32,000 bases of DNA, taken from positions 90,001-122,000 of the forward strand of contig JBAZYK010000004.1 of the NCBI GenBank assembly GCA_041659405.1. Reading direction: 5' to 3'. The DNA is from Candidatus Altimarinota bacterium (GTDB lineage Bacteria; Patescibacteriota; Gracilibacteria; UBA1369). Numbering within the stretch: the first letter of the stretch is position 1; each line of letters opens with the position of its first letter. A program made the position numbers and the translations under genes. Below the pieces are notes generated by a model. It saw nothing but the letters and a program-made list of their open reading frames with translations, searched no databases and was not told where the DNA came from. Positions 1,646 through 25,126 of the stretch are shown piece after piece.

Positions 1646-1746
1646 AAAAACCGTCCCATCCGCATTTTTCAGCCATTTTTTTGTAATACAAAACTCGACG
1701 AAGAGTTGTATTTAGTGTAAGAAGAAACCTAATCATCACTTTATAT

Positions 1747-4135: not shown

Positions 4136-4168
4136 TACGTCATTTTAGTTAATTTTGTCAAGTCTTTC

Positions 4169-6505
4169 ATGTCAGACCTCTTATCCAATCTCAATCCAAA
4201 GCAGCAGGAAGCCGTAAAAGCCACTCACGGACCTGTTTTGGTAATCGCCGGTGCGGGCTCTGGCAAGACCAAGGCACTTACCAATCGCATCGCTTACATG
4301 ATTGAAGAGGAGCATGTGAGCCCCTGGAATATTTTGGCTGTGACTTTCACGAATAAAGCCGCGAATGAAATGAAAGAGCGCATCGTGAAGCTTTTAAAAA
4401 AAGACGCTCCGCTTGCGTTTAGTGAATATAGTTCTCAGGGTTCTGGCAGCCGGGATTTGCCTTCTGTCGGCACTTTTCACTCCACTTGCGTGCGCATTTT
4501 GCGTCAAAATATCCACCTTTTGAATTACGAAAATCAGTTCGTTATTTACGACACTGCCGATCAACAAATTCTGGTTAAGCAGATCATGAAAGATTTGCAG
4601 ATTGATGAAAAACAGACCAATCCGCGCGCAGTTTTAAACTTTATTTCCAGCGCCAAAAATCAGCTGATTGGGCCCACACAGTACCATCAATTTGCCAATA
4701 ATTACTTCACCGAAAGAGTGGCGGAAGTGTATGAAAAATATCAGAAAGCACTCCATAAAAATAACGCGCTGGATTTTGATGACATCATCATGAAAACGGT
4801 TCAGCTTTTTCAGTCTGAGCCAAAAGTTCTTGATCATTATCAGGAAAAATTCCGGTTTATTTCCGTTGATGAGTATCAGGATACCAACGAGGCGCAATAT
4901 ATTTTAACCAATATGTTGGCCAAAAAATATCGCAATTTGTGTGTAATCGGTGATTCCGACCAGAGCATTTATAGCTTTAGAGGAGCCAATATCGGCAACA
5001 TTCTCAATTTTGAAAAAGATTATCCGGATGCCAAGGTGGTTAAGCTTGAGCAGAATTATCGCTCCACTCAGACGATTTTGGATGCAGCTCATGGAATTAT
5101 TGTTAAAAATGCCAAGCGCAAAGACAAAAAACTTTGGACGCAGCGTGAAGGTGGCGAAAAAATTAAACTTGTTTCGGTTGATAACGAACGCCAGGAAGGT
5201 GAATTTGTAGCCAGGGAAATTATGGATCGTCTGCGCGCTTATGAAACGCCGGACTATCGCGATTTTGTGATTTTATACAGAACCAATGCCCAGTCACGCG
5301 TGTTGGAAGAAGTTTTTTTGCGTTATGCGATTCCCTACAAAATTGTGGGTGGTATAAAATTTTACGAACGCAAAGAGGTGAAGGATATTATCGCTTATTT
5401 AAGGGTTATTCAGAACCCCAGCGATTCGGTAAGTATGATGAGAATTATCAATACACCAACCAGGAAAATTGGCACCAAATCGATTGAGCAACTAAGACAT
5501 TACGCGCAGATTCACAATTTAACTTTGTTTGAGGCCATGGAACAGGTGGGAAACAACAGGCAGGAAGTAGAAAACGGGATGTTGGATTCGGGAGATTTTG
5601 ATTTGCAGGATTCCAAAATCGAATCTATTCAAAGATTTGCAAAAGTCATTCGCGATTTGCAACAGATCAATAGGGAGTTTTCGGCTTCGGGAGTCATTAA
5701 ACACGTCCTTGAATACACAGGTTATAAGCAGATGATTGACGATAACACGGCAGATGGCGACGCCCGCGTTGAGAATATTTATGAATTGGTTGGTGTGTCC
5801 AGCAAGTACGATAAACTTGAGCCGGGCACTTCACTCAGTATTTTTTTGGAAGAGGTCGCTTTGATTGCCGATGTGGACAGCATGAGCACTCAGGATAATG
5901 CTGTAACTTTTATGACGATTCATTCCGCCAAAGGTTTGGAATTTCCAAATGTGTTTTTAGTTGGGCTTGAGGAAGGCATTTTCCCGCATTCCCGCAGTTT
6001 GTTGGAGCGTGACGAGTTGGAAGAAGAACGTCGTTTAATGTACGTGGCGATCACCCGCGCTAAAGATAAACTCTATTTGCTGAATGCCAAAAACCGCATG
6101 CTTTACGGAGAATCTCATGCCAATGCCGCTTCACAATTTTTGGCCGATATTCCGGCGGAATTATTTGAAGACGTGCAACCACAACGCCGGATTTTGCGTC
6201 GTGAAGAAATTAGTGGCACACCAATTCCAATGGAAGGAGTCGTGGAGGGGATCGCAGAAGGAAACTTGGCAAATGCCGGCGGATTTTCAAATGCAAGCGA
6301 CGGCCCACGTTTTGTGCCGGACGAAGACTTTGCGGACAGCTCCAATCCGGAAAGTTATTCCGATGGCGATAAGGTTTATCACAATTCTTTTGGTGAAGGC
6401 GTGGTTGTAACCGTAACCGGAGGAGTGGCTACAGTCCGCTTTAAAAACGCCAGATACGGCATCAAAAAACTGGCACTTTCAATCGCGCCACTAAGGAAAA
6501 TGTAG
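4169..6505 (+). CDS. pcrA: UvrD/PcrA/Rep-family ATP-dependent DNA helicase
   Basis: 778 aa. Walker A GAGSGKT, DEYQDTN, QNYRST, TIHSAKGLEF, RRLMYVAITRAK, and a C-terminal Tudor-like tail (GDKVYHNSFGEGVV). Confidence 0.92.
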   Translation: MSDLLSNLNPKQQEAVKATHGPVLVIAGAGSGKTKALTNRIAYMIEEEHVSPWNILAVTFTNKAANEMKERIVKLLKKDAPLAFSEYSSQGSGSRDLPSVGTFHSTCVRILRQNIHLLNYENQFVIYDTADQQILVKQIMKDLQIDEKQTNPRAVLNFISSAKNQLIGPTQYHQFANNYFTERVAEVYEKYQKALHKNNALDFDDIIMKTVQLFQSEPKVLDHYQEKFRFISVDEYQDTNEAQYILTNMLAKKYRNLCVIGDSDQSIYSFRGANIGNILNFEKDYPDAKVVKLEQNYRSTQTILDAAHGIIVKNAKRKDKKLWTQREGGEKIKLVSVDNERQEGEFVAREIMDRLRAYETPDYRDFVILYRTNAQSRVLEEVFLRYAIPYKIVGGIKFYERKEVKDIIAYLRVIQNPSDSVSMMRIINTPTRKIGTKSIEQLRHYAQIHNLTLFEAMEQVGNNRQEVENGMLDSGDFDLQDSKIESIQRFAKVIRDLQQINREFSASGVIKHVLEYTGYKQMIDDNTADGDARVENIYELVGVSSKYDKLEPGTSLSIFLEEVALIADVDSMSTQDNAVTFMTIHSAKGLEFPNVFLVGLEEGIFPHSRSLLERDELEEERRLMYVAITRAKDKLYLLNAKNRMLYGESHANAASQFLADIPAELFEDVQPQRRILRREEISGTPIPMEGVVEGIAEGNLANAGGFSNASDGPRFVPDEDFADSSNPESYSDGDKVYHNSFGEGVVVTVTGGVATVRFKNARYGIKKLALSIAPLRKM

Positions 6506-6506
6506 G

Positions 6507-6525
6507 TGTGCACGTGCACAGATTT
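6507..6525 (+). repeat. TGTGC-N4-GCACAGATTT motif, copy 1
   Basis: TGTGCACGTGCACAGATTT. The 14-bp core is a perfect palindrome. It begins 2 nt after the helicase stop. A near-identical copy lies at 21982-22000. Confidence 0.5.
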
Positions 6526-6537
6526 CCATGTGAGCTT

Positions 6538-6789
6538 TTAAAGTTTATCCGCATTAATCGCCTTTTTTTCCACTTCGCTCAAAACAGTGGCAACTTTTCC
6601 TTCTTCTTTGATGCGATAAAAATTGCGAATGCTTTTTTCGCTTCCAAAAGCCACATTTTTAGTGTTACAAATGCTGCATTTATAAGCGAATTTTCTGCCT
6701 ACGGGCATAGTCTGAACAATTTTTTCACAGTCTTTACAGTAGCAAATAACTCCTTCGGGCAATTTATTGTCTAGTTTTGATATGAACAT
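6538..6789 (-). CDS. Hypothetical zinc-ribbon protein
   Basis: 83 aa with two CxxC pairs (CYCKDC ... CSIC). Confidence 0.5.
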   Translation of the reverse strand: MFISKLDNKLPEGVICYCKDCEKIVQTMPVGRKFAYKCSICNTKNVAFGSEKSIRNFYRIKEEGKVATVLSEVEKKAINADKL

Positions 6790-6832
6790 AAATTCAATTC
6801 TTCAATAAATAAAAAACTTTAAATGGTCAAAA

Positions 6833-7738
6833 CTAAAGGTCCATTCGGTAAGCTTGAGGTTGAGGTGCGTTTCCGGTATTAGTCCCGGCTGCAGCAACGG
6901 CGCTTCCAACAGTAGCTCGGGCCGCATTTTCGGCGGCACCAACAGTATTCTCGGCACTATCAGCGGCAATCGAGACGGTTTGTTTTTGCTCATCCGGTGT
7001 TTCACGAAGCGCAGGATTAGGCTTTGGAGTTGGATATGCTGTGCGCATTTCCGGATGCACAGTTCTGAATTCCGGACGATTTTGTTTAGTATCTTGATGA
7101 ATGCGGGTTTCCTGCTGAATACGTGCCTCTGTCTGAGTTGAAGAAATTTCAGGCTTAATAGAAGCCATTTCCGGTCGGACCGAATTTGTTTCCGGTCGAA
7201 CACTGCGCAGACTTTCTCGTGATTTTTGTTGCACAGCAGCCATTATTGGATCTCTTGTTTCTTCTTCAAAAGCTTTAATTGCGTGAGTCTTTTCACGGGT
7301 ATTCAGATAGCCTCCGATTGTCAGACTTGATGCGGCCAAAAAGGCGATAAACATGCCATATCCCGGGTTTTTATCGGTAAGATTTACACCAAAATTTTTG
7401 TCAAAATAAATCGAATTGGTTACAAACAAAAGATAAAAAGAAAAAATCCCAAAACTCAAATAAAGCTTTGGAGATTTTAAAGATTCAAAAGGAATTTTAA
7501 CTCTCAAATGATTGGCAATAATTAAAGCCAGGGTCATTCCGGCCATAGCCAAAAAAGTGAGCCCAATCAAATACAGCGGGCCATTGATCCCAATAAAAGT
7601 TTGTCCATAATGGAATGTATCCAAATCGCTATACCAAGGCAAAAACAGACTCAAAATCATCAACAGGGAGCCGGCCCCAATCAGTTTTTTTTCAAAAGAA
7701 AGTTCTGAAACTATCTGATTAATGCGTTTATTTGGCAT
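6833..7738 (-). CDS. Integral membrane protein with repetitive RPE-rich C-terminal tail
   Basis: 301 aa. The N-terminal half has about 5 hydrophobic segments. The C-terminal tail has degenerate repeats (VRPETNSVRPEMASIKPE...NRPEFRTVHPEMRT). Confidence 0.65.
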   Translation of the reverse strand: MPNKRINQIVSELSFEKKLIGAGSLLMILSLFLPWYSDLDTFHYGQTFIGINGPLYLIGLTFLAMAGMTLALIIANHLRVKIPFESLKSPKLYLSFGIFSFYLLFVTNSIYFDKNFGVNLTDKNPGYGMFIAFLAASSLTIGGYLNTREKTHAIKAFEEETRDPIMAAVQQKSRESLRSVRPETNSVRPEMASIKPEISSTQTEARIQQETRIHQDTKQNRPEFRTVHPEMRTAYPTPKPNPALRETPDEQKQTVSIAADSAENTVGAAENAARATVGSAVAAAGTNTGNAPQPQAYRMDL

Positions 7739-7885
7739 AAAAATTTTTATTTATAGATTTGACGTGTGTGTTTGAACTATAAAAAGAAAAGTGCTATTTG
7801 TAAAGCAAAACCCCAATATTTTTGAGTACCCAAGTCGCACAAAAGCGAGTAGAATAGTGCAGAATTTTAGACTTTATTTTCTGCA

Positions 7886-9088
7886 ATGAAAGAAGCTTCC
7901 ATCACGCACAAAGTGCCTATTTCTACCGCGAGCGGAGCGAGTTCCATCATCGCACAGGCGACTCAGGCACACGCCCCACTTCGCATTGCCATAGACATCC
8001 GCGAGGCCGGCCACGAAAAAACCGGTAAAGGCTGGTATACATATAATTTGGTTCAGGCACTGCTGGAAATTGATTCGCATAATGAATACATCCTTTATAC
8101 CGATCAGGAAAAAAATTCTTACAAGGAATTTAAAAATGCTCACATTAAAACCGTAAAAGGGAAGTCGGTAATTTGGCATTTGAATGTTTTGAAAGACCTT
8201 AAAAAGAGTCCGCCGGTCGACATTTTCTTTGCGCCGACCAGTTATATTATTCCCTGTTTTGCTCCAAAAAATTTGCGAGTGATTATTACCGTTCACGATT
8301 TGGTCGCATTTTTATTTCCAGGATCACATAATTCCAAAGCTGTTTTAATTGAACGCGTAACGTTGAGAAAAGCGCTCAAGAAAGCCGCAAACGTCCTTGT
8401 GGTTTCCGCGAATACCGAGAAGGATTTGCTGGATCGTTTCCATTATCCCAAAGAAAAAATCCACGAAGTTCCCTGCGCAACAACCGAATTTTATAAAGAA
8501 GAAATCGGCGAGCGCGAGTTAACCGCATTCAAGAAAAAGCACCATCTTCCCGATAAATTTATTTTAGCGGTTGGAACTCTTGAACCCCGCAAAAACTTTT
8601 CCACACTGATTAAAAGTTTTGTGATTGTTAAGCGAAAATATCCCGATTGCAAACTTGTAATTGTTGGCAAAAAAGGCTGGAAATATAAACTGATTGAAGA
8701 GGCTTTAAAAAAATATCAGTTGGAAAGTGATGTGATTTTTCCGGGATATTTGGTGGATGAAGATCTCCGCAAAATGTATCACCTGGCGAGCGTTTTTGTA
8801 TTTCCATCTTTGTATGAAGGATTCGGGATTCCGCCTCTGGAAGCCATGGCTTGCGGGTGCCCCGTGGTAAGTTCCAACGTTGCGTCTTTGCCGGAAGTTA
8901 TTGGAGACTCGGGACTTTTGATCGATCCAAAAAACGCCCACAAATGGGCCGACGCGGTTTGCAGTTTGCTCGACAACGAACAAACCAGAAATATGCTGAT
9001 CGAAAGAGGTCATCGCCGCGCCGAAAAATTCAGCTGGGCCAACTCCGCAAAAATCGCCCTGGAAGTTTTTGAAAGTTATGCAAGATAG
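7886..9088 (+). CDS. Glycosyltransferase, GT4 (GT-B, retaining) family
   Basis: 400 aa. C-terminal motif [38 protein letters not shown] (EX7E type). The roughly 30-aa N-terminal extension may mean the true start lies downstream. Confidence 0.85.
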
Positions 9089-9102
9089 AGATAAGCCTAT
9101 CT

Positions 9103-9131
9103 TTGCGCAACCAACCGTGCAGGCATATAAT
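9103..9131 (+). promoter_or_regulatory. Putative sigma70-type promoter for nadK
   Basis: TTGCGC (9103-9108), a 17-nt spacer, then TATAAT (9126-9131). It lies 27 nt upstream of the ATG at 9158. Confidence 0.45.
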
Positions 9132-9157
9132 TTGAGCGCTTCATTAAGCAAGTTTTT

Positions 9158-10066
9158 ATGGCTAATCAAACATCTTCACAGGCCCACTCCCTCCAGAAAA
9201 TCGGCATTATCACCAAAAGTAATATTGGTGAGCGCAAAAGCGATCTAAAAAAAATTGTCGCGATGCTGAAGAAATTTAAAAAAGAGGTTTTGCTGGATGT
9301 AAATTCCGCGCCGGTTTTAGGTGTAAAAAATGGCCACAGAAAGACCGAACTGCTTCAGGTTTGTGATCTTGTTTTGACCCTTGGCGGCGATGGAACTTTG
9401 CTCAGAGCTGCCCGATGTACAGCCAATAAACCGACCTTAATCCTTGGTGTGAATTTTGGAAATCTGGGATTTTTGACTGAATCAATACCTGAAAAACTTG
9501 AGCAGGATCTTAAAAAATTATTTGAAGGTCATTATTATATTGATGAACGTTTTCTTTTGCGCATCAATCATTATCGCAACGGTCAAAGAATTAATACCTT
9601 TTTAGCTCTAAATGATGCGGTAATTAACCAGGGAGCTTTTGCCAGACTGATTGAAATGCAGGTCGAAATTAACAAACAGCGCATGGTTACTTTTAAGGCC
9701 GATGGCTTGATCGTGAGCTCTCCGACCGGTTCAACGGGTCATGCCCTTTCTGCCGGAGGACCAATTGTTCATCCTTCTTTGCCCGCTTTTATTCTTACCC
9801 CAATCTGCCCCGCAACGCTTTCCGTACGCCCAATCGTCATTCCAAATGATCGCGAAATAAAAATAACTTTGACTACCCAAAGAAAAGAAAACCAAAATGT
9901 CGGTTTAACCTTGGACGGCCAAAAAACCATTCCGCTTCAATATGGAGACGAAATCAAAATCCGCCAATCCAAGCGCAAGTTTTTACTGATTCGCCTAAAA
10001 GGTGGCAGCAGCTATTACCGCATGCTCCGCAGCAAACTCCACTGGGGCGAGCATCATGGGGATTAA
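9158..10066 (+). CDS. nadK: NAD+ kinase
   Basis: 302 aa with the motifs GGDGTLL, NDAVI and SSPTGSTGHALSAGGPIV. Confidence 0.9.
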   Translation: MANQTSSQAHSLQKIGIITKSNIGERKSDLKKIVAMLKKFKKEVLLDVNSAPVLGVKNGHRKTELLQVCDLVLTLGGDGTLLRAARCTANKPTLILGVNFGNLGFLTESIPEKLEQDLKKLFEGHYYIDERFLLRINHYRNGQRINTFLALNDAVINQGAFARLIEMQVEINKQRMVTFKADGLIVSSPTGSTGHALSAGGPIVHPSLPAFILTPICPATLSVRPIVIPNDREIKITLTTQRKENQNVGLTLDGQKTIPLQYGDEIKIRQSKRKFLLIRLKGGSSYYRMLRSKLHWGEHHGD

Positions 10067-13894: not shown

Positions 13895-14563
13895 TTAAAA
13901 ATGAAAAAACTTCAAGAAAGATTCCATGATTGGGCCTGGGAAAACCGCCAAAGGAATCGCCAAAAAGTATGCGATCATTTGCCCGGTAAAAGCCGCAAAT
14001 AGCGGTATGGTCAGGTTATCATCCAGTTTGCCGGTAAATAATTCCACAATACTGGCCACAAAAGCCATACTCAAAAAAATCACCGGATAAAGCGGCAAAA
14101 ACAGATATCCAATTACGCAATTCACCGCCAAGCCTCCCAAAAATCCTTCCAGCGTCTTGTTTTTATGGATTTTATGTCGTCCAAATTTGATTCCAATCAA
14201 CGCAGAAGCTAAATCCCCAAAAATAGTTAAAAGCATCGCTGTCATTGCAATCGGATAATCAAAAGCGGAAAAAGCAATGATTGTCGCGGCAATAAAGAAA
14301 ATCGTACCGGTCACATTATTCATTTCCCGTTTTCTAAGCGCGATGAAATTTGGCAATTTTGGCATGTATTCAAGCCGTACATATTCAACTTCAAGCAGTA
14401 TCAAAAACAGCAGGGTTAAGCCCAAAATACCCACCCTTTGCGAAAAATATTGTCTCAGCAATGTGTACGCCAAAAGCACCGGAAGCTCCATCAAATGAAA
14501 AAGTTTCCGAATTATTTCCTTATAAAGCGAATGTTTTTTCATAATTATTGCGCAGCTCATCAA
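13895..14563 (-). CDS. CTP-dependent polyprenol/dolichol-kinase or CdsA-family integral membrane protein
   Basis: 222 aa and polytopic, with FGRHKIHKNKTLEGFLGGL resembling the cytidylyltransferase/dolichol kinase family. The start may be Met8 (MKKHSLY). Confidence 0.55.
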   Translation of the reverse strand: MMSCAIIMKKHSLYKEIIRKLFHLMELPVLLAYTLLRQYFSQRVGILGLTLLFLILLEVEYVRLEYMPKLPNFIALRKREMNNVTGTIFFIAATIIAFSAFDYPIAMTAMLLTIFGDLASALIGIKFGRHKIHKNKTLEGFLGGLAVNCVIGYLFLPLYPVIFLSMAFVASIVELFTGKLDDNLTIPLFAAFTGQMIAYFLAIPLAVFPGPIMESFLKFFHF

Positions 14564-14657: not shown

Positions 14658-17600
14658 CTAATTCGTAACCATAAACATTCTTCCTTCCGACCTACCAAAC
14701 ACTTCAGGGAAATAGGTCTCGGAAGCCATCGCCGGTAAATCATGATAAGTGCCCGGGGTGGTCGCTCTTACAAAATAATTAATTTCATAAACACCTTTTG
14801 GCAGGAAGTCCGCAAAATAAGTCATGCGATCATCCAAAACTTCGGAATGATTAAATCTCCAGAGTTCGTTATAACAGTCCCAAGTTAGGCACATACTGCC
14901 TTTGCCATCATTTTGGTCCTGCAACTGTTGCTCTGAAGTCTTCAAGCTGAAATCAACGCCTTCCAAACCGGCAGGCAAAAAGTCTTCAACCAAAACGTAA
15001 TAGCTATCTTCAGGCACAATGATTGTCATTTTTCCTTTCAAATTTTCACCAACTTTTATTGAAGTCAGCGGATTTTCTTCCTTTTTATCATCAGTCGCAA
15101 AATATTGTTGATGAACCTCAATTCCTTCATCGCGTGCCTTAATTTGCTCGGTTGGCAGGAAGTATTGCAGATTCATATCAAAATACATTTTTCCATTGCC
15201 GTTACGTACCGCCGTGATCTCGTTATCAAGATTATTTTGCAGCAAATCTTTAAGCGGAATTGTCACTTCTTCACGCGCTTCAATATTATTTTCAGTGAAG
15301 CCCTTATGGAGTTTTTCTGCTCCATTAACGGTCACAATGCCATCATAATCAACGTTTAATTCACCGCTGGTTTTTAGGTATTCAATCAACGCCATCAAAC
15401 TAACCGCCGTTTCCTGGGTAGAAGCAAAGTGCCCATTTTTCTTTTCCAAAAGCATGTAACGCAACATCTTTGGAACCAAAGGATTGGCCGGATCCAAGCG
15501 GTTTAACATCTGCAAAATCAAAGCTGTAGTACGATTATTTGTATCAAAAAACTGATAATCCAAAGTGTTTTCTTCAAAATGCACGCCGCGTGGAGATTCC
15601 TTTGCTCTAGCCAAAATTTCGTTTTTGATAGTGTCGATTTTCTTTTGCACTTCCTGTAAAGCGGCACCACCAAGTTTTTCCTGGGTAATCAATTTCTGCA
15701 GATCCATCACCAGATAAGCCTGCGCGGAAAGATTTAAATTCTTGCGTAAATCAAACAAATTATTACTTAAAGCCAAATCGCCTTTGCCCATTTCCGCCAG
15801 TACGTAAAGCGCAAAAGCACGTGAATCTAAATTATATTTATCGTATTTCGTGCTGCTAAGAGTGCTGTTTGTTAGTTGTGAAATTTTAACAGAATTACTG
15901 CCAATTTTACTCTTTAAGAAATTCACACCACGATTCATCACATTATCATCAACGGTATAGCCGGCCTTTTTGCTTTCATTCAAGGCAAATAAAACATAGC
16001 TGGTTAAATGCGGAGTCGCTTCACTGGTTTCCCAAAGGCCCCAACCGCCATTACCCTGTTGCAGTTTATATAAAGCCTGCAAGCCACTTTCCACATTTTT
16101 TTGTAGAGTTTTTTGATCCACCAATTTTGCCGCAATTTTTCCAAGTGCCGGCAAACTCAACATTTGTTTAATGGTCACATTTGGCAAGAGCGCGCTGGCA
16201 ACCTGTTCAGCGCAGCCATAAGGATAAGTCATTAAATATTCAATGCCCTTGGTGATGGAAGAAGCTAAAGTAGGCGCAACCGCAATCGTTAATTTTCCAA
16301 ATTTCGGATCGATATTATTTGGCAGCCAAACGGTCTCAACATGCTTATCACCATTATCAATTACTGTCGAAGTAGCAACAGTTTCCGGGAAACTGTAAGG
16401 ATGAATTGGCATTTTATTTTCCAGAATATCACCGATATTGGAATCATTAACGGCAATAGCCTTAAATGTAATTACGGCTTCCGCTTCATCTAAAACGGTT
16501 GCTTTAAATTCAACTTTCTTTTCTTCGCCGGAACCCAAATGAATTCGCTGTTTATTAGAACCATTCAAAGTCACGCCACTCGCTTCAACCGAAACATCCA
16601 AATCAACCGCATTGGTAAGATAATTATGAACAATCGTTCCAACCGTAATCTCATCATTCACAATTAAAAATCTTGGCAAAATAGGTCGCACCAAAACATC
16701 TTTGCTGACAATAAAGTCCGTTTTTTGGCTTCCAACCAAGGTATTTGCAGTAGCGCCAATCGCCAGTATCTGCCAGGTGGTCAAATTATCCGGCAATTTA
16801 AATTTAATAGTTCCCACACCTTGTTCATTTGTATTCAAAGCAGCCTGCCAATAAGCGGTATCTTTAAAGTTTCCACGTTTTTGTAATGTACCGCCTCCAC
16901 CACCTTTTAACCCCGATTCAACCTGCACATTTATGCGTGATAAAGCCTTGGTTAAAGTTTCCGAAGTCATTACGCCCAAAGATCTCTTTCTGTAAAAATC
17001 ATTTAAAAGATCAGCCGTAAAGTTTTCCACCAAAGACAAAACACTCTTATCCACAACACTTAAAGACATTTCCGCTTTCACGGGTTTTCCATTCACGTCA
17101 GTTGTTTTTACATTGATCGTAACTTCATCGCCGGGGTGATATTTTTGTTGATTTGTCTGCACGCTAACCAACAATTTTCTACTTGAAGTATCAACTTGAA
17201 GCGTTGCATAACCCATTTTAAACGAGGCCACACTGCGCTCATCAATGGCATCTTTGCCCGTAGGTTGCGCCAAACCGGCCTGATTATTATCGCCCTTAAT
17301 CAGCACCACGGAAACAAATTCATTTGGGATCGATTTATCGGTAATCGGCACATCAATCACATCCGAATTGGATTTAATTTTGATAACTTTTTTATCCAAA
17401 ATTTCGCCGCGTTCATAAGTAACCAAAGCATAAACATTTTGATACGGTGACTTCACCATTACATGGGCGGTATCACCAATCTTGTATTCCTGCTTGTCCG
17501 CAACCAATTCAATACGGTCATTATTTGCCTGTCCCCAGTTAACAAAACTACCTGAAGAAACATAAACAGTTGTTGACGAAGTTATTTTATTTCCACGACT

Positions 17601-20600
17601 ATCTTTGCTTTCGGTTCCAACTTTAAACACACCGCCTTCTTTTGGAATAAAGCTTACGTTAGCCTTCCCCTGATTATCGGTTGTAACAGTTTTCTTTTCG
17701 ATCAGGACGTCATCATAACTGTTTTCAAAATAATAATCGCTGTCCACATTCTTCTTTTTTACAGTGTTCCAATTGCGTTTATACAAAGTAACTTCAGTCG
17801 ATTTTCCGCCAACCACCTTGCCATTTTCATCAACACTGACAAGATCAAATTTAGCCTCTTTCCCGGCCTGAACAACATCATTTATGCTCATAATGCCAAC
17901 ATAATATTCACCTTCATGAACCGAAACCGTCACACGATCGGAAACACTCTGATTATTCAAATCAAAAGCCGTAACCTCAACCGTATAAAATTGACTCATT
18001 TTTTTATCCGCAATATTTAACGGAAGTTCAATTGTGTATTCGCCATTAGCGTCTAATTTGGCTTTCCCCTGGGAGACAACGGCTGTTTGTCCCTGACAGC
18101 CAAAGTAACAGGAATATCCTTCATCCGAAAAACTAAAGAACGGACTTAAATTATTATCACTATTCAAAAAGAAGAAATAATCCTGACTTTTTACAGTCCA
18201 TTGAATCGGCGCATTTGGCAGCGGCGCGCCAAAAAAGTAACTCGCCTTCACTTTCAATTTCAAAGTATCGCCATTTACATAACTCTTTTTATCCGTATTT
18301 AAATTGATCTGATAATCCGGTTTTCGGTACTCTGCAACGTGGAAACTCTGGTACGACCCGATGACATTACTTTGCCCCTTGCCTGTTACCACTCCATTAT
18401 TGCCGACAGCAACATTTAGAAAATAATCACCTGTAGCCGCCTGATTGCCAAGTTGCAATTCACCGGCAAAACTTCCATTCGCATTTAAATCCAAAGTTTT
18501 GCTATAAACAGCATTTCCCATACTGTCATCAATCGTGACCATAGCCTGTTTTACATCCGGCAACTTAAAGGCAGCATCTTTATCAACACGCAGAATCCCT
18601 TTGAAATAAACGGTATTTCCCGGTCTATAAATCGGCCTATCCATATAAACATAGGCATAATATTTTGGAGCGTACGGATTGTAATCAATATTAAAACTGC
18701 TTGGATCAACACCTTCACTCCAGGTGGTGTGGGTCAGCGTAATGTCATTATTTTTCTTTCCAAAAATTAAATATTGGCGATTATAAATATTTTCAGAGCC
18801 AGCCGACGCAGGCAAATCAAAAGTCACCAAACCATTTTGATCTGTTTTTCCGCTATAAAGAGCCTTTCCGTCGGTACTGCCATTTTGTATAACCGAAATA
18901 TCCATGCCCGCATTTGGTGCGCCATCAGCAAAATTTGTCGCCCAGATAAGCAGTTTTGTTGGACTCATCTTCATGGTTAATCCACTGTAGCTCACCATAA
19001 AAATATGACGTTCAATTCTTAAATTAAGCGCTCCATCTTGTCCCGCGTAAGGGTTTTTTACCTGCGGACTCGAAACATCAAAATAATAATATCCCGGCGC
19101 CATAGCCATATTCGTCTCTTTCCCAAGATCGATTTTGGTTGTTACAGTTTGATTAAACTGCTTGGCGATAGTTTTTGAAAAGCTCGTAAAAGGTCCGGCT
19201 GGAATATTGCTGCGCCAATCAATATAACCTCGTTGATAAATTTTCTTAAATTCTTCTTCGGAAAGTTTTTTAAAATTAAGATTCATGGTATCAACATTGG
19301 TCGATTTTACATAAAAAACAGTCGGTTTATTGGCATCCACAACAGTTATATCGGTTGGGCTCATTACTTCAAAAGTAGGCGAAATAGCCGCAGTTTTAAA
19401 AGTAAGAACAAAGTCCTGATTCAAAGTTTTTCCAAACTGATCCTTAACACCTTTTTGAATTGTGATCTTATAATCTGTGGACGGTTTGATCGCGTAAGAA
19501 ACGTTCAAAACGGTGTCACTCAGACTTAAAGTAAGGTCAGGTTGATTCTCCAGTTTGGTATCTGCATCGATGGATTTTGGCTCAATCGCAAATTTTTCTT
19601 TGATGCTGTCCAAATCCATCGGCTGGCTAAATGTCAAAGAAATGCCACCACTTAGCGGATAATCTTTCACTCCATTTTTAGGAGCAGTACTATTAACGGT
19701 AATTTCACCAACTGTTTTAAAGAGAATTCCTTTATCTTCGCCAAGTGTTAAAGTGCCTTCCACGCCGCCAAAATCCTTATCAACTTTCACCAGATAATAT
19801 TGATCATAACCCAAAGGTTGCGCCGGACTTAACATCAAAGTTTTCTTTAGTTCTTCAGGTTCCGGCAATGTTATTTGAGTATCACCTTCTTTATATTCAC
19901 TATCGGTTTTAAACTGATTCAAAGTGTAATAAGAAACCTGGAAAGGTACTTCGGCCCAATCATTGGCATTAAATTGTTTCAAGACGTCTTCCGTTGATTG
20001 TGGAGCAGATTTACCTGAACCACTAATGTTAGTACTCTGCGGGCAGTCTCCTCCACATCCAAAAAATTTCAATCTATTCTTATCACCCTTATAACTCCAC
20101 AAATGAATCTTGGATGAAGCTTTATCAGCATTCATTATCTGGTTAAAGAGAAGTTGAATATTTGAACTGCTAGCTGGAAAATCGGAAAGATCGGAAAAAA
20201 AGAGTTGAGGGCCATTATATTTGCCCAAGTTTAGTGGAACCGTATTGATCAACTCCGGTTTCAAAGTATCAAACGTCGCCACAAAATCCTGATCGGTTTG
20301 ACCACCCTCTGCCGAAAAAGTACCTTTTGGAATCGTCAAAGTATAGTGAGTTGAATATGCCAATTTATCAGGTATAAAGCGGATAGAATCAGTTCCAAGC
20401 CACTTCATTTTGCCGTTTGTTGGAGGATCAATTTTTACCGCGATTGCATTTTCAACACCCTGATCCAAAGTGGTTAATTGCGTCATCGGTCGATCAAAGT
20501 GCATCGTAATTTGCGCATCTATAGGCACATCAACCGAACTTGCAGCAGGAGAAAAAAGTAAAACCTGCGGTGGTCCGGTTATCTCAAAAACCTCTTCATA

Positions 20601-21173
20601 ATCATAACGTAACGATTTTTGGAAAATACTTTTAGCCGCGCGATCCACAAATACATTAAAGGTTTGTCCAACTTTAAATTGATCTTTTGGATAGAACATT
20701 AAAGCATTCCCGGACCAGTCAAATCGCCCTTCAACCTGCGGATTAACGCGGAAAGCCTTTTCAACCGAACCATGGTCCATCAACTGCGTAAAGACAACTT
20801 TTATTGGCGCATTATAAGAAATTTTTCGCACATTTGCCCTTAAGTTGTAGCCCTGAACTTCCGGAGCCGGAATAAATGGATAACTAGCAAATCCAACAGT
20901 AATAACCAAAAGTATAGCCACAACAAATGCCCAGCCTTTATTAAGTGATCCAAAATTAAATTTAGGCCAAGTAAATCGCGCCACACTACCCTCACGCATC
21001 ACCTCTTTATGCTTCATCATTAACTTCGTCCGCAAATTCTTCTGGAACTGCGCGCGTGGAATTTCCGACGCATTGCTGGAAATTGCGCTCACCAATTTCT
21101 GCAGATCCTCAGGCCGTTTTTTGGCCTCCAGCATCTTCATGAATTCTCTAATTTTTTTGGTGAGAAAGAACAT
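14658..21173 (-). CDS. Alpha-2-macroglobulin-family protease-trap protein, N-terminally membrane anchored
   Basis: 2171 aa. Thioester context YPYGCAEQVASALLPN. Ig-like/MG-type repeats fill the N-terminal two thirds. The alpha-helical TED-like region includes QGNGGWGLWE. Residues 81-100 form a single hydrophobic helix, and the first 110 residues contain no Cys, so there is no lipobox. Confidence 0.9.
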   Translation of the reverse strand: MFFLTKKIREFMKMLEAKKRPEDLQKLVSAISSNASEIPRAQFQKNLRTKLMMKHKEVMREGSVARFTWPKFNFGSLNKGWAFVVAILLVITVGFASYPFIPAPEVQGYNLRANVRKISYNAPIKVVFTQLMDHGSVEKAFRVNPQVEGRFDWSGNALMFYPKDQFKVGQTFNVFVDRAAKSIFQKSLRYDYEEVFEITGPPQVLLFSPAASSVDVPIDAQITMHFDRPMTQLTTLDQGVENAIAVKIDPPTNGKMKWLGTDSIRFIPDKLAYSTHYTLTIPKGTFSAEGGQTDQDFVATFDTLKPELINTVPLNLGKYNGPQLFFSDLSDFPASSSNIQLLFNQIMNADKASSKIHLWSYKGDKNRLKFFGCGGDCPQSTNISGSGKSAPQSTEDVLKQFNANDWAEVPFQVSYYTLNQFKTDSEYKEGDTQITLPEPEELKKTLMLSPAQPLGYDQYYLVKVDKDFGGVEGTLTLGEDKGILFKTVGEITVNSTAPKNGVKDYPLSGGISLTFSQPMDLDSIKEKFAIEPKSIDADTKLENQPDLTLSLSDTVLNVSYAIKPSTDYKITIQKGVKDQFGKTLNQDFVLTFKTAAISPTFEVMSPTDITVVDANKPTVFYVKSTNVDTMNLNFKKLSEEEFKKIYQRGYIDWRSNIPAGPFTSFSKTIAKQFNQTVTTKIDLGKETNMAMAPGYYYFDVSSPQVKNPYAGQDGALNLRIERHIFMVSYSGLTMKMSPTKLLIWATNFADGAPNAGMDISVIQNGSTDGKALYSGKTDQNGLVTFDLPASAGSENIYNRQYLIFGKKNNDITLTHTTWSEGVDPSSFNIDYNPYAPKYYAYVYMDRPIYRPGNTVYFKGILRVDKDAAFKLPDVKQAMVTIDDSMGNAVYSKTLDLNANGSFAGELQLGNQAATGDYFLNVAVGNNGVVTGKGQSNVIGSYQSFHVAEYRKPDYQINLNTDKKSYVNGDTLKLKVKASYFFGAPLPNAPIQWTVKSQDYFFFLNSDNNLSPFFSFSDEGYSCYFGCQGQTAVVSQGKAKLDANGEYTIELPLNIADKKMSQFYTVEVTAFDLNNQSVSDRVTVSVHEGEYYVGIMSINDVVQAGKEAKFDLVSVDENGKVVGGKSTEVTLYKRNWNTVKKKNVDSDYYFENSYDDVLIEKKTVTTDNQGKANVSFIPKEGGVFKVGTESKDSRGNKITSSTTVYVSSGSFVNWGQANNDRIELVADKQEYKIGDTAHVMVKSPYQNVYALVTYERGEILDKKVIKIKSNSDVIDVPITDKSIPNEFVSVVLIKGDNNQAGLAQPTGKDAIDERSVASFKMGYATLQVDTSSRKLLVSVQTNQQKYHPGDEVTINVKTTDVNGKPVKAEMSLSVVDKSVLSLVENFTADLLNDFYRKRSLGVMTSETLTKALSRINVQVESGLKGGGGGTLQKRGNFKDTAYWQAALNTNEQGVGTIKFKLPDNLTTWQILAIGATANTLVGSQKTDFIVSKDVLVRPILPRFLIVNDEITVGTIVHNYLTNAVDLDVSVEASGVTLNGSNKQRIHLGSGEEKKVEFKATVLDEAEAVITFKAIAVNDSNIGDILENKMPIHPYSFPETVATSTVIDNGDKHVETVWLPNNIDPKFGKLTIAVAPTLASSITKGIEYLMTYPYGCAEQVASALLPNVTIKQMLSLPALGKIAAKLVDQKTLQKNVESGLQALYKLQQGNGGWGLWETSEATPHLTSYVLFALNESKKAGYTVDDNVMNRGVNFLKSKIGSNSVKISQLTNSTLSSTKYDKYNLDSRAFALYVLAEMGKGDLALSNNLFDLRKNLNLSAQAYLVMDLQKLITQEKLGGAALQEVQKKIDTIKNEILARAKESPRGVHFEENTLDYQFFDTNNRTTALILQMLNRLDPANPLVPKMLRYMLLEKKNGHFASTQETAVSLMALIEYLKTSGELNVDYDGIVTVNGAEKLHKGFTENNIEAREEVTIPLKDLLQNNLDNEITAVRNGNGKMYFDMNLQYFLPTEQIKARDEGIEVHQQYFATDDKKEENPLTSIKVGENLKGKMTIIVPEDSYYVLVEDFLPAGLEGVDFSLKTSEQQLQDQNDGKGSMCLTWDCYNELWRFNHSEVLDDRMTYFADFLPKGVYEINYFVRATTPGTYHDLPAMASETYFPEVFGRSEGRMFMVTN
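16203..16214 (-). other. CAEQ thioester motif (CxEQ) of the macroglobulin
   Basis: The codons TGC GCT GAA CAG are read on the minus strand. The Cys is residue 1654 by frame arithmetic. Confidence 0.8.
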
Positions 21174-21207
21174 ATTATAAGGTAAAATAATATTTTTTTT
21201 AATTCAT

Positions 21208-21248
21208 CGCCGGTTTAGTGGCCGGCGGGGAACCGTCTTCGCGGTCCC
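21208..21248 (-). promoter_or_regulatory. Two adjacent GC-rich hairpins between the sigma factor stop and the macroglobulin start
   Basis: CGCCGG (21208-21213) pairs with CCGGCG (21222-21227) around an 8-nt loop. GGGAACC (21228-21234) pairs with GGTCCC (21243-21248) around an 8-nt loop and one bulge. No U-tract follows on the coding strand, so this is not a canonical terminator. Confidence 0.35.
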
Positions 21249-21251
21249 TGG

Positions 21252-21836
21252 TTAAGCGAAATATTGTAAATCAGGTTTTATTTTACGAAGAGTACGGTAA
21301 AGGATAATCGCGACATTACTTTCGGAAAGACCGGTCATCTGGACAATTTCTCGATTCGACAATTCGCTAAAAAATTTCAACTGTATTACTAAAAGTTCTC
21401 GTTCAGGTAAAGTTTTCATAACCTTTTTAACCACATCGGAAAGCTCTTCGCGGGCTGCTTTAATGTGTGGCGAAGCTTTTTCTTCCGGCTCGGAAACACC
21501 GTAAGCCCGCTCAATATCGGATGTCCTGGTTTTATTATGTCTCTGGTAATAATCATTCAAAACATTGCGGGCTATGCGGAAAACCCAGGCACCAAAGGGT
21601 ACACCGCGCCATTCAAATTTTTGGATATTTTCCAGCACCTTCATGAAAATATCACTCACCAGATCCTCGGCATCATCACGATCATTTATCTTGGCAGCAA
21701 CAAAAGAATAGACCTTTGGAAAATAAAAATCATAAAGCTTCCCAAAACTTTCGTTATTTGATTTGGCATCCATCACAAGCTGTTTTTCGTCGCTGAGATC
21801 CATCTTTTTTGTGGGAGAAAAGGCGATTGATCGCAT
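21252..21836 (-). CDS. ECF-type (group 4) sigma-70 family RNA polymerase sigma factor
   Basis: 194 aa. Region 2 (DAEDLVSDIFMKVLENIQKF...FGAWVFRIARNVLNDYY) and region 4 HTH (LSNREIVQMTGLSESNVAIILYRTLRKI) are present, and region 3 is absent. The start may be Met12 (MDLSDEK) at 21803. Confidence 0.85.
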   Translation of the reverse strand: MRSIAFSPTKKMDLSDEKQLVMDAKSNNESFGKLYDFYFPKVYSFVAAKINDRDDAEDLVSDIFMKVLENIQKFEWRGVPFGAWVFRIARNVLNDYYQRHNKTRTSDIERAYGVSEPEEKASPHIKAAREELSDVVKKVMKTLPERELLVIQLKFFSELSNREIVQMTGLSESNVAIILYRTLRKIKPDLQYFA

Positions 21837-21981
21837 TCCGCATCGATCACCGATACCCCAACAGTATAAGAAAGCGTTAGCATAAGCAAGGCGATCGAAA
21901 GAAAAATCACTATTAATAACAGCGCCCCAAAAAAAGTATTACAAAGTTAGACTTTGCTCCAGACTCGGCACTTTAATAAGT

Positions 21982-22000
21982 TGTGCGTGCGCACAGATTT
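21982..22000 (+). repeat. TGTGC-N4-GCACAGATTT motif, copy 2
   Basis: TGTGCGTGCGCACAGATTT lies in the 194-bp gap between the PBP stop and the sigma factor start. Compare TGTGCACGTGCACAGATTT at 6507-6525. Confidence 0.5.
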
Positions 22001-22030
22001 AAGTCTAGAAAATGGCTTCTGCGAGCCAAA

Positions 22031-24622
22031 TTATCTTACTTCAAAAGCAACATTTTTACTCTTCAATACCTTGCCATCACTCAGAACCACCTCTGCCCGC
22101 AATTTGTGTGACCCTTTTATCGGCAGCCACAAGGCACTAAAAGGGGATACCTTATTGGCGACAACCAAAGTTTCATCAATAAAATATCTAACTTCACCGG
22201 TATCAAGCGGCACCGTAACCCGCAAAGGAATTTTTTGATCTTTTAAAGGAAGCGTTCCTTCGATCATGTATTCATCGCCATTCCGTGGCGAATCAATTAT
22301 CACCTCCGTAAAGTTCGCGCCCGCACTGCCCGCCGCCCCCGCGCCGCCCGTCGAGCCTGCACCGCTTGCCCCAGTCTGCGCACTCACCGTCTTCCCGCAC
22401 GGCTCCACATAAGGCAAAGCCAGGCTTTCCCCAACCGCCCATTTTTGAAATTTTGGCGGATAAACAACAAAAGTTTTTTGTTGCAGGTTGGCCGGCACGC
22501 CTTGGCTACTCAGCGCACTTTCACCTTGCGGCCCACCGCCCAGCGCGCCACCGTCAGCGCTCCCACCCACGCAGGCATCCTGAATAATATGTCCGGAATT
22601 TTTATCGACCCAAAATTGTTTATAATAATCATCTTTTTCTTTTGGCTCTGTTCCGGGCACAAACAGTTCAAAAACCCGATCCTGACACAAATCCGTAGGC
22701 AATTTGCCGGAAATTCCACAAATTTCCACCTGTTTTAATCCCGCCGGTTTCACAAAATCCGTTACCGCCATCCCACTTCCGCCGCCCCCCAAAGCCCCCA
22801 ACGCCGACTCCATAAAATCATGCCAAATTGGACCCGCTCCATCCACGCCGCTTATATTATTCATCGGCGTTGCGTCTGCGTTTCCAACCCAAACCGCTGT
22901 TAAAAGTTGCGGAGTAAATCCAACCGTCCAGTTATCACGAAAATTTCTGGTTGTACCGGTTTTAACCGCTGCTGGCCTGCTTAATTCAAGCACGCTACCT
23001 TCTCCAAAACCGCCAAGTCTGGCCAACGGATCTTTTAAAATATCAATAATTTGATAAGCGTGTTCCTTTCCATGTTGTCCCAAAACAAATTGTTCCGGTG
23101 GGGGAGTCCACTGATACAAAATTTTCCGCTGCGAATCTTCAATTTTTAAAATTGTGCTCAAATCCCTTTCGTTACCGTAATTCGCCAACATATTAAAAGC
23201 GCGCGCAAAATCCAGCATTCTAACTTCGGCTCCACCAAGCGTTAAAGCCAGCCCATAAAAATTCGGATCCTGATCCAGAGTATTAATTCCAATTTTTCTT
23301 AAAAAAGAAATAAACGCCTCAACTCCCACAAAATCCAAAGTTTTCACCGCCGGAATATTAAAAGAACTCGCTAAAGCATTACGCAAACGCACCGGACCAT
23401 GATACCGCAAATCATAATTTTTCGGCTCATAAGCGCCGGTATCGGTCGAAAAAGTTGTGGGAACATCATCCAAAATTGTCGCAGGTGTATACCCTTTTTC
23501 CAGTGCCAGTAAATAATTAAATGGCTTAACGGCAGAGCCAGGTTGTCGCAGCGCTGTAACCATATCCACCGCTCCATCAATATTTTCATTAAAATAATTT
23601 TCACTTCCAACCCACGCTAAAATCTGTCCGGTTTTTGGATCCAAAGAAAGTAACGCTCCATTTGTAACATGTTTATCATGCAAAAGTTCAACCTGCCTGG
23701 AAACCGTATTTTCAGCCTTTAATTGCAGATTGTAATCCAGTGTTGTGTAGATGGATAGCCCCCCGCGATTCATGATTTGATCGCCCAATTCATTGATGAC
23801 ATACTGCACAAAATGCGGTGCTTTCATTTCGGTTTTATTGCGACGCAAATGGAGTGGTTCTTCGTAAGCCGCCTTGTTTTCCGCATCTGAAATAAATCCA
23901 TTTTTAGTCATTTGATCCAAAACATATTGCTGTCTTTTTTTTGCCGGATCAAAATACAAAAATGGATTATAAGCAGACGGCGCTTGTGGAAGCCCCGCCA
24001 GGAACGCGCTTTGGGCCAGATCCAAATCATTAACATGCTTGTCAAAATAATCCAAAGCCGCAGAATCCGATCCATAAGCCAAATTTCCGTAATAAATTTT
24101 ATTCAGATAAAGTTCCAAAACCTGATCTTTTGTATAAGAGTGACTCAAACGAACTGCATATAAAGCCTCCATAATTTTGTCACTCAGGCCGCGTTCCCTA
24201 TTAACTCCAAGCAGATTTCTTACGAGTTGCTGCGGAATAGTGCTGGCTCCACTCACAATTCTTTGCTCGCGCACATTAAAGAAGAGCGAACGCAAAATCG
24301 CCCCAAGATCAACGCCACCATGTTCATAAAAATTTATATCCTCTGCCGCTAAAGTGGCATTAATAAAATTTTTTGGAATCTGATTTAGCGGAACAAAAGT
24401 CTTTTTCCCCGAATCCGGCTGCAGAATTTCATATAAAAGCACTCCATTCCGATCAAGAATTTTAGTAGAAGGCAACTGATTACCCGCCACAAACAAATCC
24501 GGCAACGGCATCACATAAGCAACGTACAAATAAAAACTAAAGCTTAAAAATAGCAGCCCAAAAACAGCGGCCAATAGCCAAAATATAATGGGGTGATCCT
24601 TCCTGTGAAAAAAAGTTTTCAT
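22031..24622 (-). CDS. Class A penicillin-binding protein (transglycosylase/transpeptidase) with PBP1C-like C-terminal beta domain
   Basis: 863 aa with an N-terminal TM segment. GT51 motifs: EDINFYEHGGVD and GASTIPQQLVRN. Transpeptidase motifs: SAVK, SSFN and KTGTT. A Gly/Ala-rich linker precedes a roughly 100-aa C-terminal beta domain. Confidence 0.9.
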   Translation of the reverse strand: MKTFFHRKDHPIIFWLLAAVFGLLFLSFSFYLYVAYVMPLPDLFVAGNQLPSTKILDRNGVLLYEILQPDSGKKTFVPLNQIPKNFINATLAAEDINFYEHGGVDLGAILRSLFFNVREQRIVSGASTIPQQLVRNLLGVNRERGLSDKIMEALYAVRLSHSYTKDQVLELYLNKIYYGNLAYGSDSAALDYFDKHVNDLDLAQSAFLAGLPQAPSAYNPFLYFDPAKKRQQYVLDQMTKNGFISDAENKAAYEEPLHLRRNKTEMKAPHFVQYVINELGDQIMNRGGLSIYTTLDYNLQLKAENTVSRQVELLHDKHVTNGALLSLDPKTGQILAWVGSENYFNENIDGAVDMVTALRQPGSAVKPFNYLLALEKGYTPATILDDVPTTFSTDTGAYEPKNYDLRYHGPVRLRNALASSFNIPAVKTLDFVGVEAFISFLRKIGINTLDQDPNFYGLALTLGGAEVRMLDFARAFNMLANYGNERDLSTILKIEDSQRKILYQWTPPPEQFVLGQHGKEHAYQIIDILKDPLARLGGFGEGSVLELSRPAAVKTGTTRNFRDNWTVGFTPQLLTAVWVGNADATPMNNISGVDGAGPIWHDFMESALGALGGGGSGMAVTDFVKPAGLKQVEICGISGKLPTDLCQDRVFELFVPGTEPKEKDDYYKQFWVDKNSGHIIQDACVGGSADGGALGGGPQGESALSSQGVPANLQQKTFVVYPPKFQKWAVGESLALPYVEPCGKTVSAQTGASGAGSTGGAGAAGSAGANFTEVIIDSPRNGDEYMIEGTLPLKDQKIPLRVTVPLDTGEVRYFIDETLVVANKVSPFSALWLPIKGSHKLRAEVVLSDGKVLKSKNVAFEVR

Positions 24623-24700
24623 AATAACTCAAACACGCCAAAGATTCAGTTCGTGCAAAATTATAAACCCTTTCAGCCAAATTCCTATTACAAAATTCTT

Positions 24701-25126
24701 TTACTTCCAAACCTGATACCACTTCCTTTTTGGCTGTTCCAAGAGTTTAAATTGATTTTCCAAACTCAAAAAACGATCCTGAAACGCCTTCATAAAACGC
24801 ATAAAACTTTCTTTGTCCTTCTTGTTACCTTCCAGCAAACCTTCAACGTGCGCCTGCAATTTTTGAAGATCCTGCAAAGTTGCAACCTCGGCGGAAACGG
24901 CCTTTGACTCTTCCTTGATTGAGCGTTGTTCACGATCAAAAATCGAACTCTGGCCAAGTTTATAAAACTTAACAAGACTTTCCTGGGTAATCAAATAATT
25001 AAAACCCTGTGGAGTCCTTTTTTTCTTTGCCTGAAGCTTTTTGCCTTTCAAAGCACGACGAATGGTTTGTAGCGATTTACCACTTATCTTAGCGGCTTCT
25101 TGAAGCGTTAGCAGAGTTTCAGGCAT
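24701..25126 (-). CDS. Excisionase/MerR-type helix-turn-helix DNA-binding protein with coiled-coil C-terminus
   Basis: 141 aa. N-terminal LLTLQEAAKISGKSLQTIRRALKGKKL (HTH_17-like). The remainder is helical and charged. Confidence 0.6.
   Translation of the reverse strand: MPETLLTLQEAAKISGKSLQTIRRALKGKKLQAKKKRTPQGFNYLITQESLVKFYKLGQSSIFDREQRSIKEESKAVSAEVATLQDLQKLQAHVEGLLEGNKKDKESFMRFMKAFQDRFLSLENQFKLLEQPKRKWYQVWK

Follow-up and report, generated by a model that had tools for sequence, protein, structure and literature searches.

An alpha-2-macroglobulin with a candidate anti-sigma N-terminal extension, encoded beside an ECF sigma factor in an uncultured Peribacteria genome

The role of bacterial alpha-2-macroglobulins (A2Ms) is still largely a matter of conjecture, the usual proposal being protease defence paired with PBP1C repair (PMC4498604). 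The stretch of DNA analysed here, 32,000 nucleotides (nt) at positions 90001-122000 of contig C4 of genome G000 (hereafter the window; assembly 1.51 Mb, 98% complete), contains an A2M gene directly preceded by a gene for a sigma factor of the extracytoplasmic function (ECF) type. What is a sigma factor doing beside a macroglobulin? We consider it likely that A2M residues ~1-58 are the cognate partner, most probably an anti-sigma domain, of the upstream sigma factor within an autoregulatory loop. This reading is well supported by comparative evidence, and not by homology; the binding itself we infer. The features on which it depends are as follows.

21252..21836, minus strand: ECF sigma factor gene, with sigma-2 and sigma-4 regions only (Sigma70_r2, Sigma70_r4_2)
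14658..21173, minus strand: A2M gene, encoding a thioester alpha-2-macroglobulin of 2171 residues
21000..21173, minus strand: three-helix cytoplasmic extension, A2M residues 1-58, candidate sigma-binding (anti-sigma) module
20937..20999, minus strand: variable Lys-rich juxtamembrane linker, A2M residues 59-79, differing in length, sequence and indels among orthologues
20871..20936, minus strand: single transmembrane (TM) helix from hydropathy, A2M residues 80-101, followed by a conserved YP(L/F)IPAP
14658..20870, minus strand: A2M extracytoplasmic body, with three Big_5 domains, bMG3, MG2, bMG6, A2M_BRD, A2M, TED and bMG10
21917..21943, minus strand: ECF-type promoter conserved before the sigma-A2M operon, TGTAATAC (21943-21936), 15 nt, then GTTA (21920-21917)

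The original prediction, made from the letters of the window, had recognised a penicillin-binding protein (PBP), an ECF sigma factor and an A2M, with the sigma gene between the other two, and gene calls together with Pfam and NCBIfam matches agree on all three genes and their coordinates. The sigma factor scored 104.5 bits against TIGR02937 (cut-off 42.9), whilst its best NCBIfam match was a BldN-family model, under the cut-off of that model; alignment with orthologues suggests that its start is likely M12, at 21803. Within the A2M, bMG3, MG2, bMG6, A2M_BRD, A2M, TED_complement and bMG10 were all above Pfam cut-offs, with the bait-region domain at 17031-17513 and an intact thioester motif GCAEQ (residues 1653-1657, window 16203-16217). 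Ahead of the anchor, residues 1-79 hold 18 Lys and Arg versus 7 Asp and Glu (net charge +11), with one His and no Cys. Therefore, there is neither a lipobox nor an HxxxCxxC motif, and the basic residues ahead of a single TM helix indicate that the A2M N-terminus should face the cytoplasm. Composition and hydropathy thus agree with the topology proposed earlier, namely no lipobox, about 80 charged cytoplasmic residues, one TM helix (here ~80-101) and about 2070 extracytoplasmic residues.

The extension is a conserved element. Orthologues share the motif MFFxxKKIRxL...P.DL..VV.AIE..AP....FQK.LR.QLL.KH, with three helical blocks in common (KKIRxLxxxL, PxDLxxVVxAIE and FQKxLRxQLLxKH), and AlphaFold2 (AF2) places helices at residues 2-16, 22-34 and 41-65. 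Upwards of 25 orthologues carry it, with identities as low as 34% over residues 1-250 and ~24% over the 70-residue tail alone. The public A2M gene call (P0009, 2160 residues) begins at M12, 11 codons late; because MFFxxKKIR is conserved at the N-termini of orthologues, we take the ATG at 21173 to be the real start. A phmmer search with A2M residues 1-100 against 1.8 billion representative proteins returned two matches, at least one of which (P0007) is a full-length A2M relative, and the tail therefore appears to be lineage-specific.

If the extension serves the sigma factor, the two should be found together and lost together. The search for the sigma gene covered 60 relatives, and a clean gap separated its orthologues (44-86% identity, E ≤ 8e-50) from paralogues (≤ 39%, E ≥ 1e-38). 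Adjacency, which the original prediction had proposed to survey, was seen throughout these relatives: in 25/25 other readable orthologous sigma loci the next gene starts between -16 and +23 nt from the sigma stop codon and carries the extension, which supports translational coupling of the extension to sigma. Elsewhere in the phylum, A2M orthologues from other orders and classes begin with short or unrelated N-termini, and the ~1.1-1.4 kb upstream of them contain no sigma gene. The 36 genomes of the window's own family were tallied as follows.

22/36: sigma orthologue, and A2M with the full extension
6/36 (G426, G407, G410, G423, G415, G402): intact A2M without the extension, no sigma orthologue genome-wide
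1/36 (G414): intact A2M with helix 3 kept, no sigma orthologue genome-wide
5/36: neither gene
2/36: undecidable owing to contig ends
0/36: discordant

The best sigma paralogue in the seven genomes with a sigma-less A2M is only 29-37% identical. A2Ms evidently persist without the extension where sigma is gone. The TM helix and the YP(L/F)IPAP that follows it are conserved in sigma-bearing and sigma-less A2Ms alike. On a maximum-likelihood tree of the A2M ectodomain, from which the extension columns were excluded, sigma-less rows are nested among sigma-bearing rows, and 6/6 independent contrasts on the starred branches were concordant (sign test p = 0.031). Moreover, on a separate earlier tree of 37 A2M rows, the approximately unbiased test rejected a single clade of sigma-bearing rows (p = 0.0006). 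Conservation of the N-terminal segment, on which the original prediction had staked itself, is thus seen in every sigma-bearing orthologue, with the segment missing or decayed where sigma is absent.

Two genomes separate the extension from one or other of its neighbours. In G414 (locus L092, 5824-5962) a relic promoter, TGTAATAC...GTT, and helix 3 remain before the A2M, whilst sigma and helices 1-2 are lost, and there is no sigma orthologue elsewhere in the genome (99% complete). The reverse is found in G446 (locus L137, 8788-10147), where a sigma orthologue is followed by a partner of 268 residues comprising the extension, the TM helix and one Big_5 domain; no A2M domain was found anywhere in this genome (96% complete). 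The 268-residue protein could descend from a longer form by truncation, or it could serve as a model for the anti-sigma factor of the ancestor. Taken together, these two cases show the extension following sigma and not the A2M body.

A predicted cognate promoter accompanies the pair. All 20 of the 20 orthologues with enough upstream sequence have ttTGTAATACttttt, with GTT(a/t) following the C at a distance of 15-16 nt; the motif stands 63-178 nt before the sigma start, regardless of which gene lies upstream. The strict core occurs 32 times in the window's genome, with GTT at a spacing of 15 in six cases and of 16 in one, whereas each of the remaining spacings between 5 and 34 gave 0-3 cases. 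All seven strict TGTAATAC-N15/16-GTT sites precede open reading frames (ORFs), one of which is the sigma gene itself. An extended motif, TGTAATAC[AT]TT[TC]...GTT, was found 33 times in 22 sigma-bearing genomes versus once in 12 sigma-less genomes, the single case being the G414 relic. Autoregulation by sigma is therefore predicted, given a conserved cognate promoter that precedes the sigma gene and tracks its presence.

The six further strict sites of the window's genome lie at window 1682-1707 (plus strand) and at C5:40981, C5:33423, C7:24221, C9:70561 and C12:34943. They stand 55-125 nt before ORFs whose products have signal-peptide-, lipoprotein- or TM-like N-termini, and we regard them as a candidate small envelope regulon. 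On the promoter sequences, the predicted conserved regulon comprises the sigma-A2M operon and, in addition, a few envelope genes, which vary from genome to genome.

We also modelled the sigma factor together with the tail. As the two genes share a reading frame in the window, the AF2 input was a read-through fusion, translated through the two intervening stop codons, of sigma from M12, the natural 27-residue linker and A2M residues 1-70; its alignment comprised 6 paired rows, from read-through, and a further 25 rows that were unpaired. The model had a mean predicted local distance difference test score (pLDDT) of 83.8 and a predicted template modelling score (pTM) of 0.76. Over fusion residues 211-270, in blocks of 10, the pLDDT of the tail was 78, 90, 91, 85, 96 and 94, compared with 72, 80, 84, 80, 87 and 83 for the same blocks of the tail folded alone (pTM 0.37). 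The two sigma domains make up only ~0.6 of the chain, yet pTM reached 0.76, which suggests that the model places the tail confidently against sigma. The sigma part was then compared with known structures by Foldseek, with the following template modelling (TM) scores and root-mean-square deviations (rmsd).

CnrH/CnrY (4cxf): TM score 0.73, rmsd 5.6 Å
RpoE/NepR (5uxx): TM score 0.68, rmsd 4.7 Å
SigW/RsiW: TM score 0.65, rmsd ~9 Å
Holoenzyme-bound ECF sigma factors: lower TM scores, rmsd 25-27 Å

The best fits of the modelled sigma are thus closed sigma chains from anti-sigma complexes, and this fit to the closed form backs an anti-sigma role in a supportive, if not decisive, manner.

A number of results weigh against this assignment, among them the failure to find a known relative of the tail. 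The original prediction had looked to anti-sigma domain similarity in A2M residues 1-80, and here it was not upheld by profile, PDB-sequence or fold searches. Pfam gave no hit at E ≤ 10 for the window tail and 19 orthologous tails; NCBIfam and Pfam scans of A2M residues 1-120 gave nothing relevant; a profile search of PDB sequences with the tail gave chance hits only (E ≥ 0.048), none an anti-sigma factor; and Foldseek found no fold match for the tail alone. When aligned by hhalign with the N-termini of the partners of the nearest sigma paralogue, the tail reached a probability of 49% (E = 1.7e-4) over helix 3 only. The structural support is indirect, since it comes from a monomer model of a fusion with mostly unpaired rows, read through pLDDT, pTM and fold comparison, and AF2 may favour the closed sigma form by default. 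As regards the comparative evidence, the adjacency of sigma and extension weakens the argument from co-loss, as one deletion can remove both, and all sigma-extension cases trace to one ancestral gain within one order. Lastly, the extended promoter motif was defined post hoc, after the data had been seen, and related genomes are not independent. The proposal of an anti-sigma-like N-terminus consequently survives in part: co-conservation with sigma, and persistence with sigma in the A2M-less G446, speak for it, whilst homology does not.

Could the true anti-sigma factor be encoded elsewhere? The locus has no suitable small ORF, which rules out a hidden anti-sigma gene there, and zf-HC2 has no match in the whole genome of the window; a separate canonical anti-sigma gene, which the original prediction had named as a threat to itself, was thus not found by either route. 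The signature of class I anti-sigma factors (four helices; zf-HC2/RskA; Hx3Cx2C) is absent from the extension, which has no Cys and three predicted helices. Likewise, a homologue search with the A2M core returned, among its best 120 matches, only close relatives, none with a Pfam anti-sigma domain. All five ECF sigma factors of the genome adjoin a single-pass partner with a basic helical N-terminus, and none of these partners has zf-HC2. Therefore, this lineage appears to use non-canonical partners throughout. The other four sigma genes are at C13:29995, C10:1768, C3:30020 and C4:88466, the last of them shortly before the start of the window, and the N-termini of their partners contain a helix of the F/L-K-x-x-L-R/K-x-x-L type.

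The gene arrangement suggests how such a system may work. The extension-bearing A2M has the genomic marks of a membrane anti-sigma factor, in that it has an adjoining ECF sigma gene, a predicted co-transcription with it and a predicted N-in single pass. Sigma and A2M would be transcribed as one unit from the sigma-recognised promoter TGTAATAC-N15/16-GTT, closing an autoregulatory loop. In the resting state, the A2M, itself anchored in the membrane, would keep sigma there, with the A2M tail binding and inhibiting sigma by analogy with other ECF systems (PMC8999054, PMC7406223). Bait cleavage and thioester firing, or else direct proteolysis, might then use up or destroy the ectodomain; ECAM is established to undergo a large conformational change when its bait is cleaved (PMC4498604). 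A site-2 protease of the RseP type could cut the remaining membrane stub, with clearance in the cytoplasm to follow; the genome encodes both an RseP-like protein (C7:46523-48064) and ClpP (C2:91258-91797). Released sigma would re-transcribe its own operon, replacing the single-use trap, along with a few envelope genes. On this scheme the A2M would be a protease-sensing receptor and a self-replenishing trap, with firing making the anchor a substrate for intramembrane proteolysis and the tail representing a new structural class of anti-sigma domain. We put forward this fuller version tentatively, as a possibility that we do not at present favour.

The alternative that survives best is that the extension binds sigma without any protease-triggered inhibition, whether as a pro-sigma or tether element, like the FecR N-terminus for FecI, or as abundance feedback on A2M insertion. 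Co-occurrence shows that sigma and extension are coupled, not the sign of that coupling; the sole universally conserved target is the operon of sigma itself, which fits simple abundance feedback as well; and in G446 a stub of extension and TM helix pairs with sigma without the A2M body, so the ectodomain is not needed for the pairing. Nonetheless, we think it unlikely, given that in the ECF systems studied an N-in single-pass partner encoded just 3′ of the sigma gene is usually an inhibitor (PMC8999054, PMC7406223), and that the fusion model shows sigma in a closed form typical of inhibited complexes.

A second alternative separates the extension from sigma altogether, giving it a role in the insertion, localisation or stability of a type II protein of 2171 residues, with sigma acting only as the transcription factor dedicated to A2M. 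Losses of both together could then reflect single deletions, as most deletions of sigma would cut into the ~240 nt that encode the extension; the extension is without anti-sigma homology, and the gain in pLDDT on adding sigma is modest. Against this, the seven A2Ms without the full extension keep their TM helix and an intact ectodomain, which indicates that the extension is needed neither for insertion nor for A2M function, whilst G446 retains the extension with sigma after loss of the A2M body. Moreover, no genome has sigma beside an extension-less A2M, and helices 1-3 are better conserved (47/58 residues identical to the same-genus copy) than the whole protein (69%). We therefore judge a role unconnected with sigma to be quite improbable. 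That the extension is an artefact of a misplaced start codon or a chance open frame, for which the TATAAT adjoining the A2M ATG and the public call at M12 might be cited, can be dismissed, since over 25 orthologues share both MFFxxKKIR and the three helices.

How, then, does a probable sigma-partner extension on an A2M compare with known systems? The closest arrangement is that of the single-pass membrane anti-sigma factors freed by regulated intramembrane proteolysis (RsiV-SigV, RsiW-SigW, RseA-RpoE and RsiP-SigP), in which the partner gene likewise lies directly 3′ of the ECF sigma gene and is co-transcribed with it, as predicted for the window. Common to this type and, by prediction, to the window are an N-in helical domain, one TM helix, a large ectodomain, an autoregulatory promoter and a site-2 protease in the genome. 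However, the window tail is three-helix and has no class I similarity (no zf-HC2, no RskA), and its ectodomain is a complete thioester A2M of ~2070 residues. As a short helical segment of no more than ~60 residues the tail resembles the class II CnrY (two helices) and the class III RsbN of RsbN-BldN (three helices; PMC7406223). With the latter it shares three predicted helices, and the best NCBIfam match of its sigma factor, although sub-cut-off, is to the BldN family; as regards class II, the nearest match of the modelled sigma is CnrH as bound in its complex with CnrY. The tail differs from both in having no sequence similarity to them, and these classes are defined by structures of complexes, closed ones in which two or three helices clamp sigma-4 and sigma-2, whereas the window tail is defined by prediction.

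Compared with Escherichia coli ECAM/YfhM and the Salmonella A2M (PMC4498604, PMC3328433), the window A2M has the same macroglobulin (MG), bait-region, CxEQ thioester, TED and C-terminal MG elements, is likewise anchored in the cytoplasmic membrane, and has an adjoining pbpC-type gene. It differs in being anchored by a TM helix, with a cytoplasmic extension, and not by a lipid, in three extra N-terminal Big_5 domains, in the ECF sigma gene between pbpC and A2M, and in a pbpC that is apparently a separate transcription unit and often non-adjacent in relatives. We found no literature linking anti-sigma factors with macroglobulins, nor any in which an A2M acts as a sensor domain, and macroglobulins go unmentioned in the main text of the paper re-classifying ECF sigma factors. 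On its gene content, the system is most likely an ECF sigma and membrane anti-sigma arrangement in which the sensor domain is undescribed and the short tail non-canonical.

The remaining question is how far the neighbouring genes belong to this unit. The order on the minus strand is HTH_17 gene, PBP1C-type gene, ECF sigma, A2M, CdsA-like gene and pyruvate phosphate dikinase, and the features outside the sigma-A2M pair are listed below.

24701..25126, minus strand: HTH_17 gene (Pfam HTH_17, E = 9.6e-6), a conserved neighbour 5′ of pbpC
24666..24692, minus strand: possible, uncertain ECF-type promoter before pbpC from a genome scan, TGTAATAG-N16-GTT, then TATAAT
22031..24622, minus strand: class A PBP of the PBP1C type (pbpC), 863 residues, with Transgly and Transpeptidase domains
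22013..22028, minus strand: terminator-like hairpin directly 3′ of the pbpC stop codon, from a consensus scan only
21174..21251, minus strand: 78-nt spacer between sigma and A2M, specific to this genome, with two GC-rich hairpins and a TATAAT adjoining the A2M ATG
13895..14563, minus strand: CdsA-like (CTP_transf_1) multi-pass membrane protein (Pfam, E = 5e-8)

The PBP had been described as PBP1C-like in its C-terminal part, and indeed it scores above the cut-off of TIGR02073, the equivalog model for PBP1C (526.8 bits against 494.2), with a match spanning residues 51-843 of 863; BiPBP_C was not reported in the Pfam scan of this protein. Near the C-terminal part (22031-23000) the PBP1C has Gly/Ala/Ser-rich low-complexity inserts, with a local GC content of 0.50 versus ~0.40 elsewhere. 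Pairing of pbpC with A2M, which the original prediction took as the basis of the module, is present in the window and proved to be loose: pbpC is directly 5′ of sigma in ~11 loci, and it is displaced, inverted or unseen in 8 in which sigma and A2M are still paired. Given that sigma and A2M stay together despite this displacement, and that a hairpin follows the pbpC stop codon, sigma and A2M form a tight unit beside which pbpC is often found. Loci L073, L076, L080, L083, L090 and L094 also have the hth-pbpC pair. The last of these is sigma-less, with the order hth-pbpC-A2M and nothing between pbpC and A2M; its A2M (G459, 3610-9883) is split into ORFs of 1872 and 214 residues, which suggests a frameshift or early decay.

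The proposed induction of repair genes by sigma had called for an ECF-type promoter before pbpC as well. The motif found there is weaker, lies 70 nt before pbpC and is present among relatives only in L076; a relaxed core showed weak enrichment at the spacing of this site. Thus, a promoter of the expected type was recovered before the sigma-A2M operon in 20/20 orthologues, and before pbpC only in the window and L076, leaving pbpC unsupported as a conserved regulon member.

The spacer of 78 nt makes the window the sole locus with a long gap, other readable loci falling within the -16 to +23 nt given above. It contains TTAAAA-17-TATAAT at 21202-21174, and a same-genus relative has TAATATG at the position of the window's spacer. 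A transcript from the spacer TATAAT would begin past M1 and could yield only a protein from M12 or M14, without the start of helix 1. The spacer is unique in the genome, which rules out a repeat element. On the other side of the A2M, a CdsA-like gene follows in every locus with a visible flank, whether sigma is present or not, and often overlaps the A2M stop codon; we know of no description of a CdsA-like protein as an A2M partner.

In summary, the A2M of this lineage probably carries a partner domain for the sigma factor encoded beside it. If the trap is indeed wired to a transcription factor, the role of an A2M would become directly testable by protease addition with a promoter readout, and the sigma factor, tail and promoter form a set compact enough for transfer to E. 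coli. Such wiring would convert an irreversible, single-use extracellular event into gene expression, and the ECF repertoire would gain a sensor domain and, probably, a new short module that binds sigma. Moreover, it would offer a handle on envelope stress signalling in bacteria of the Candidate Phyla Radiation, here uncultured Peribacteria, which are unculturable alone.

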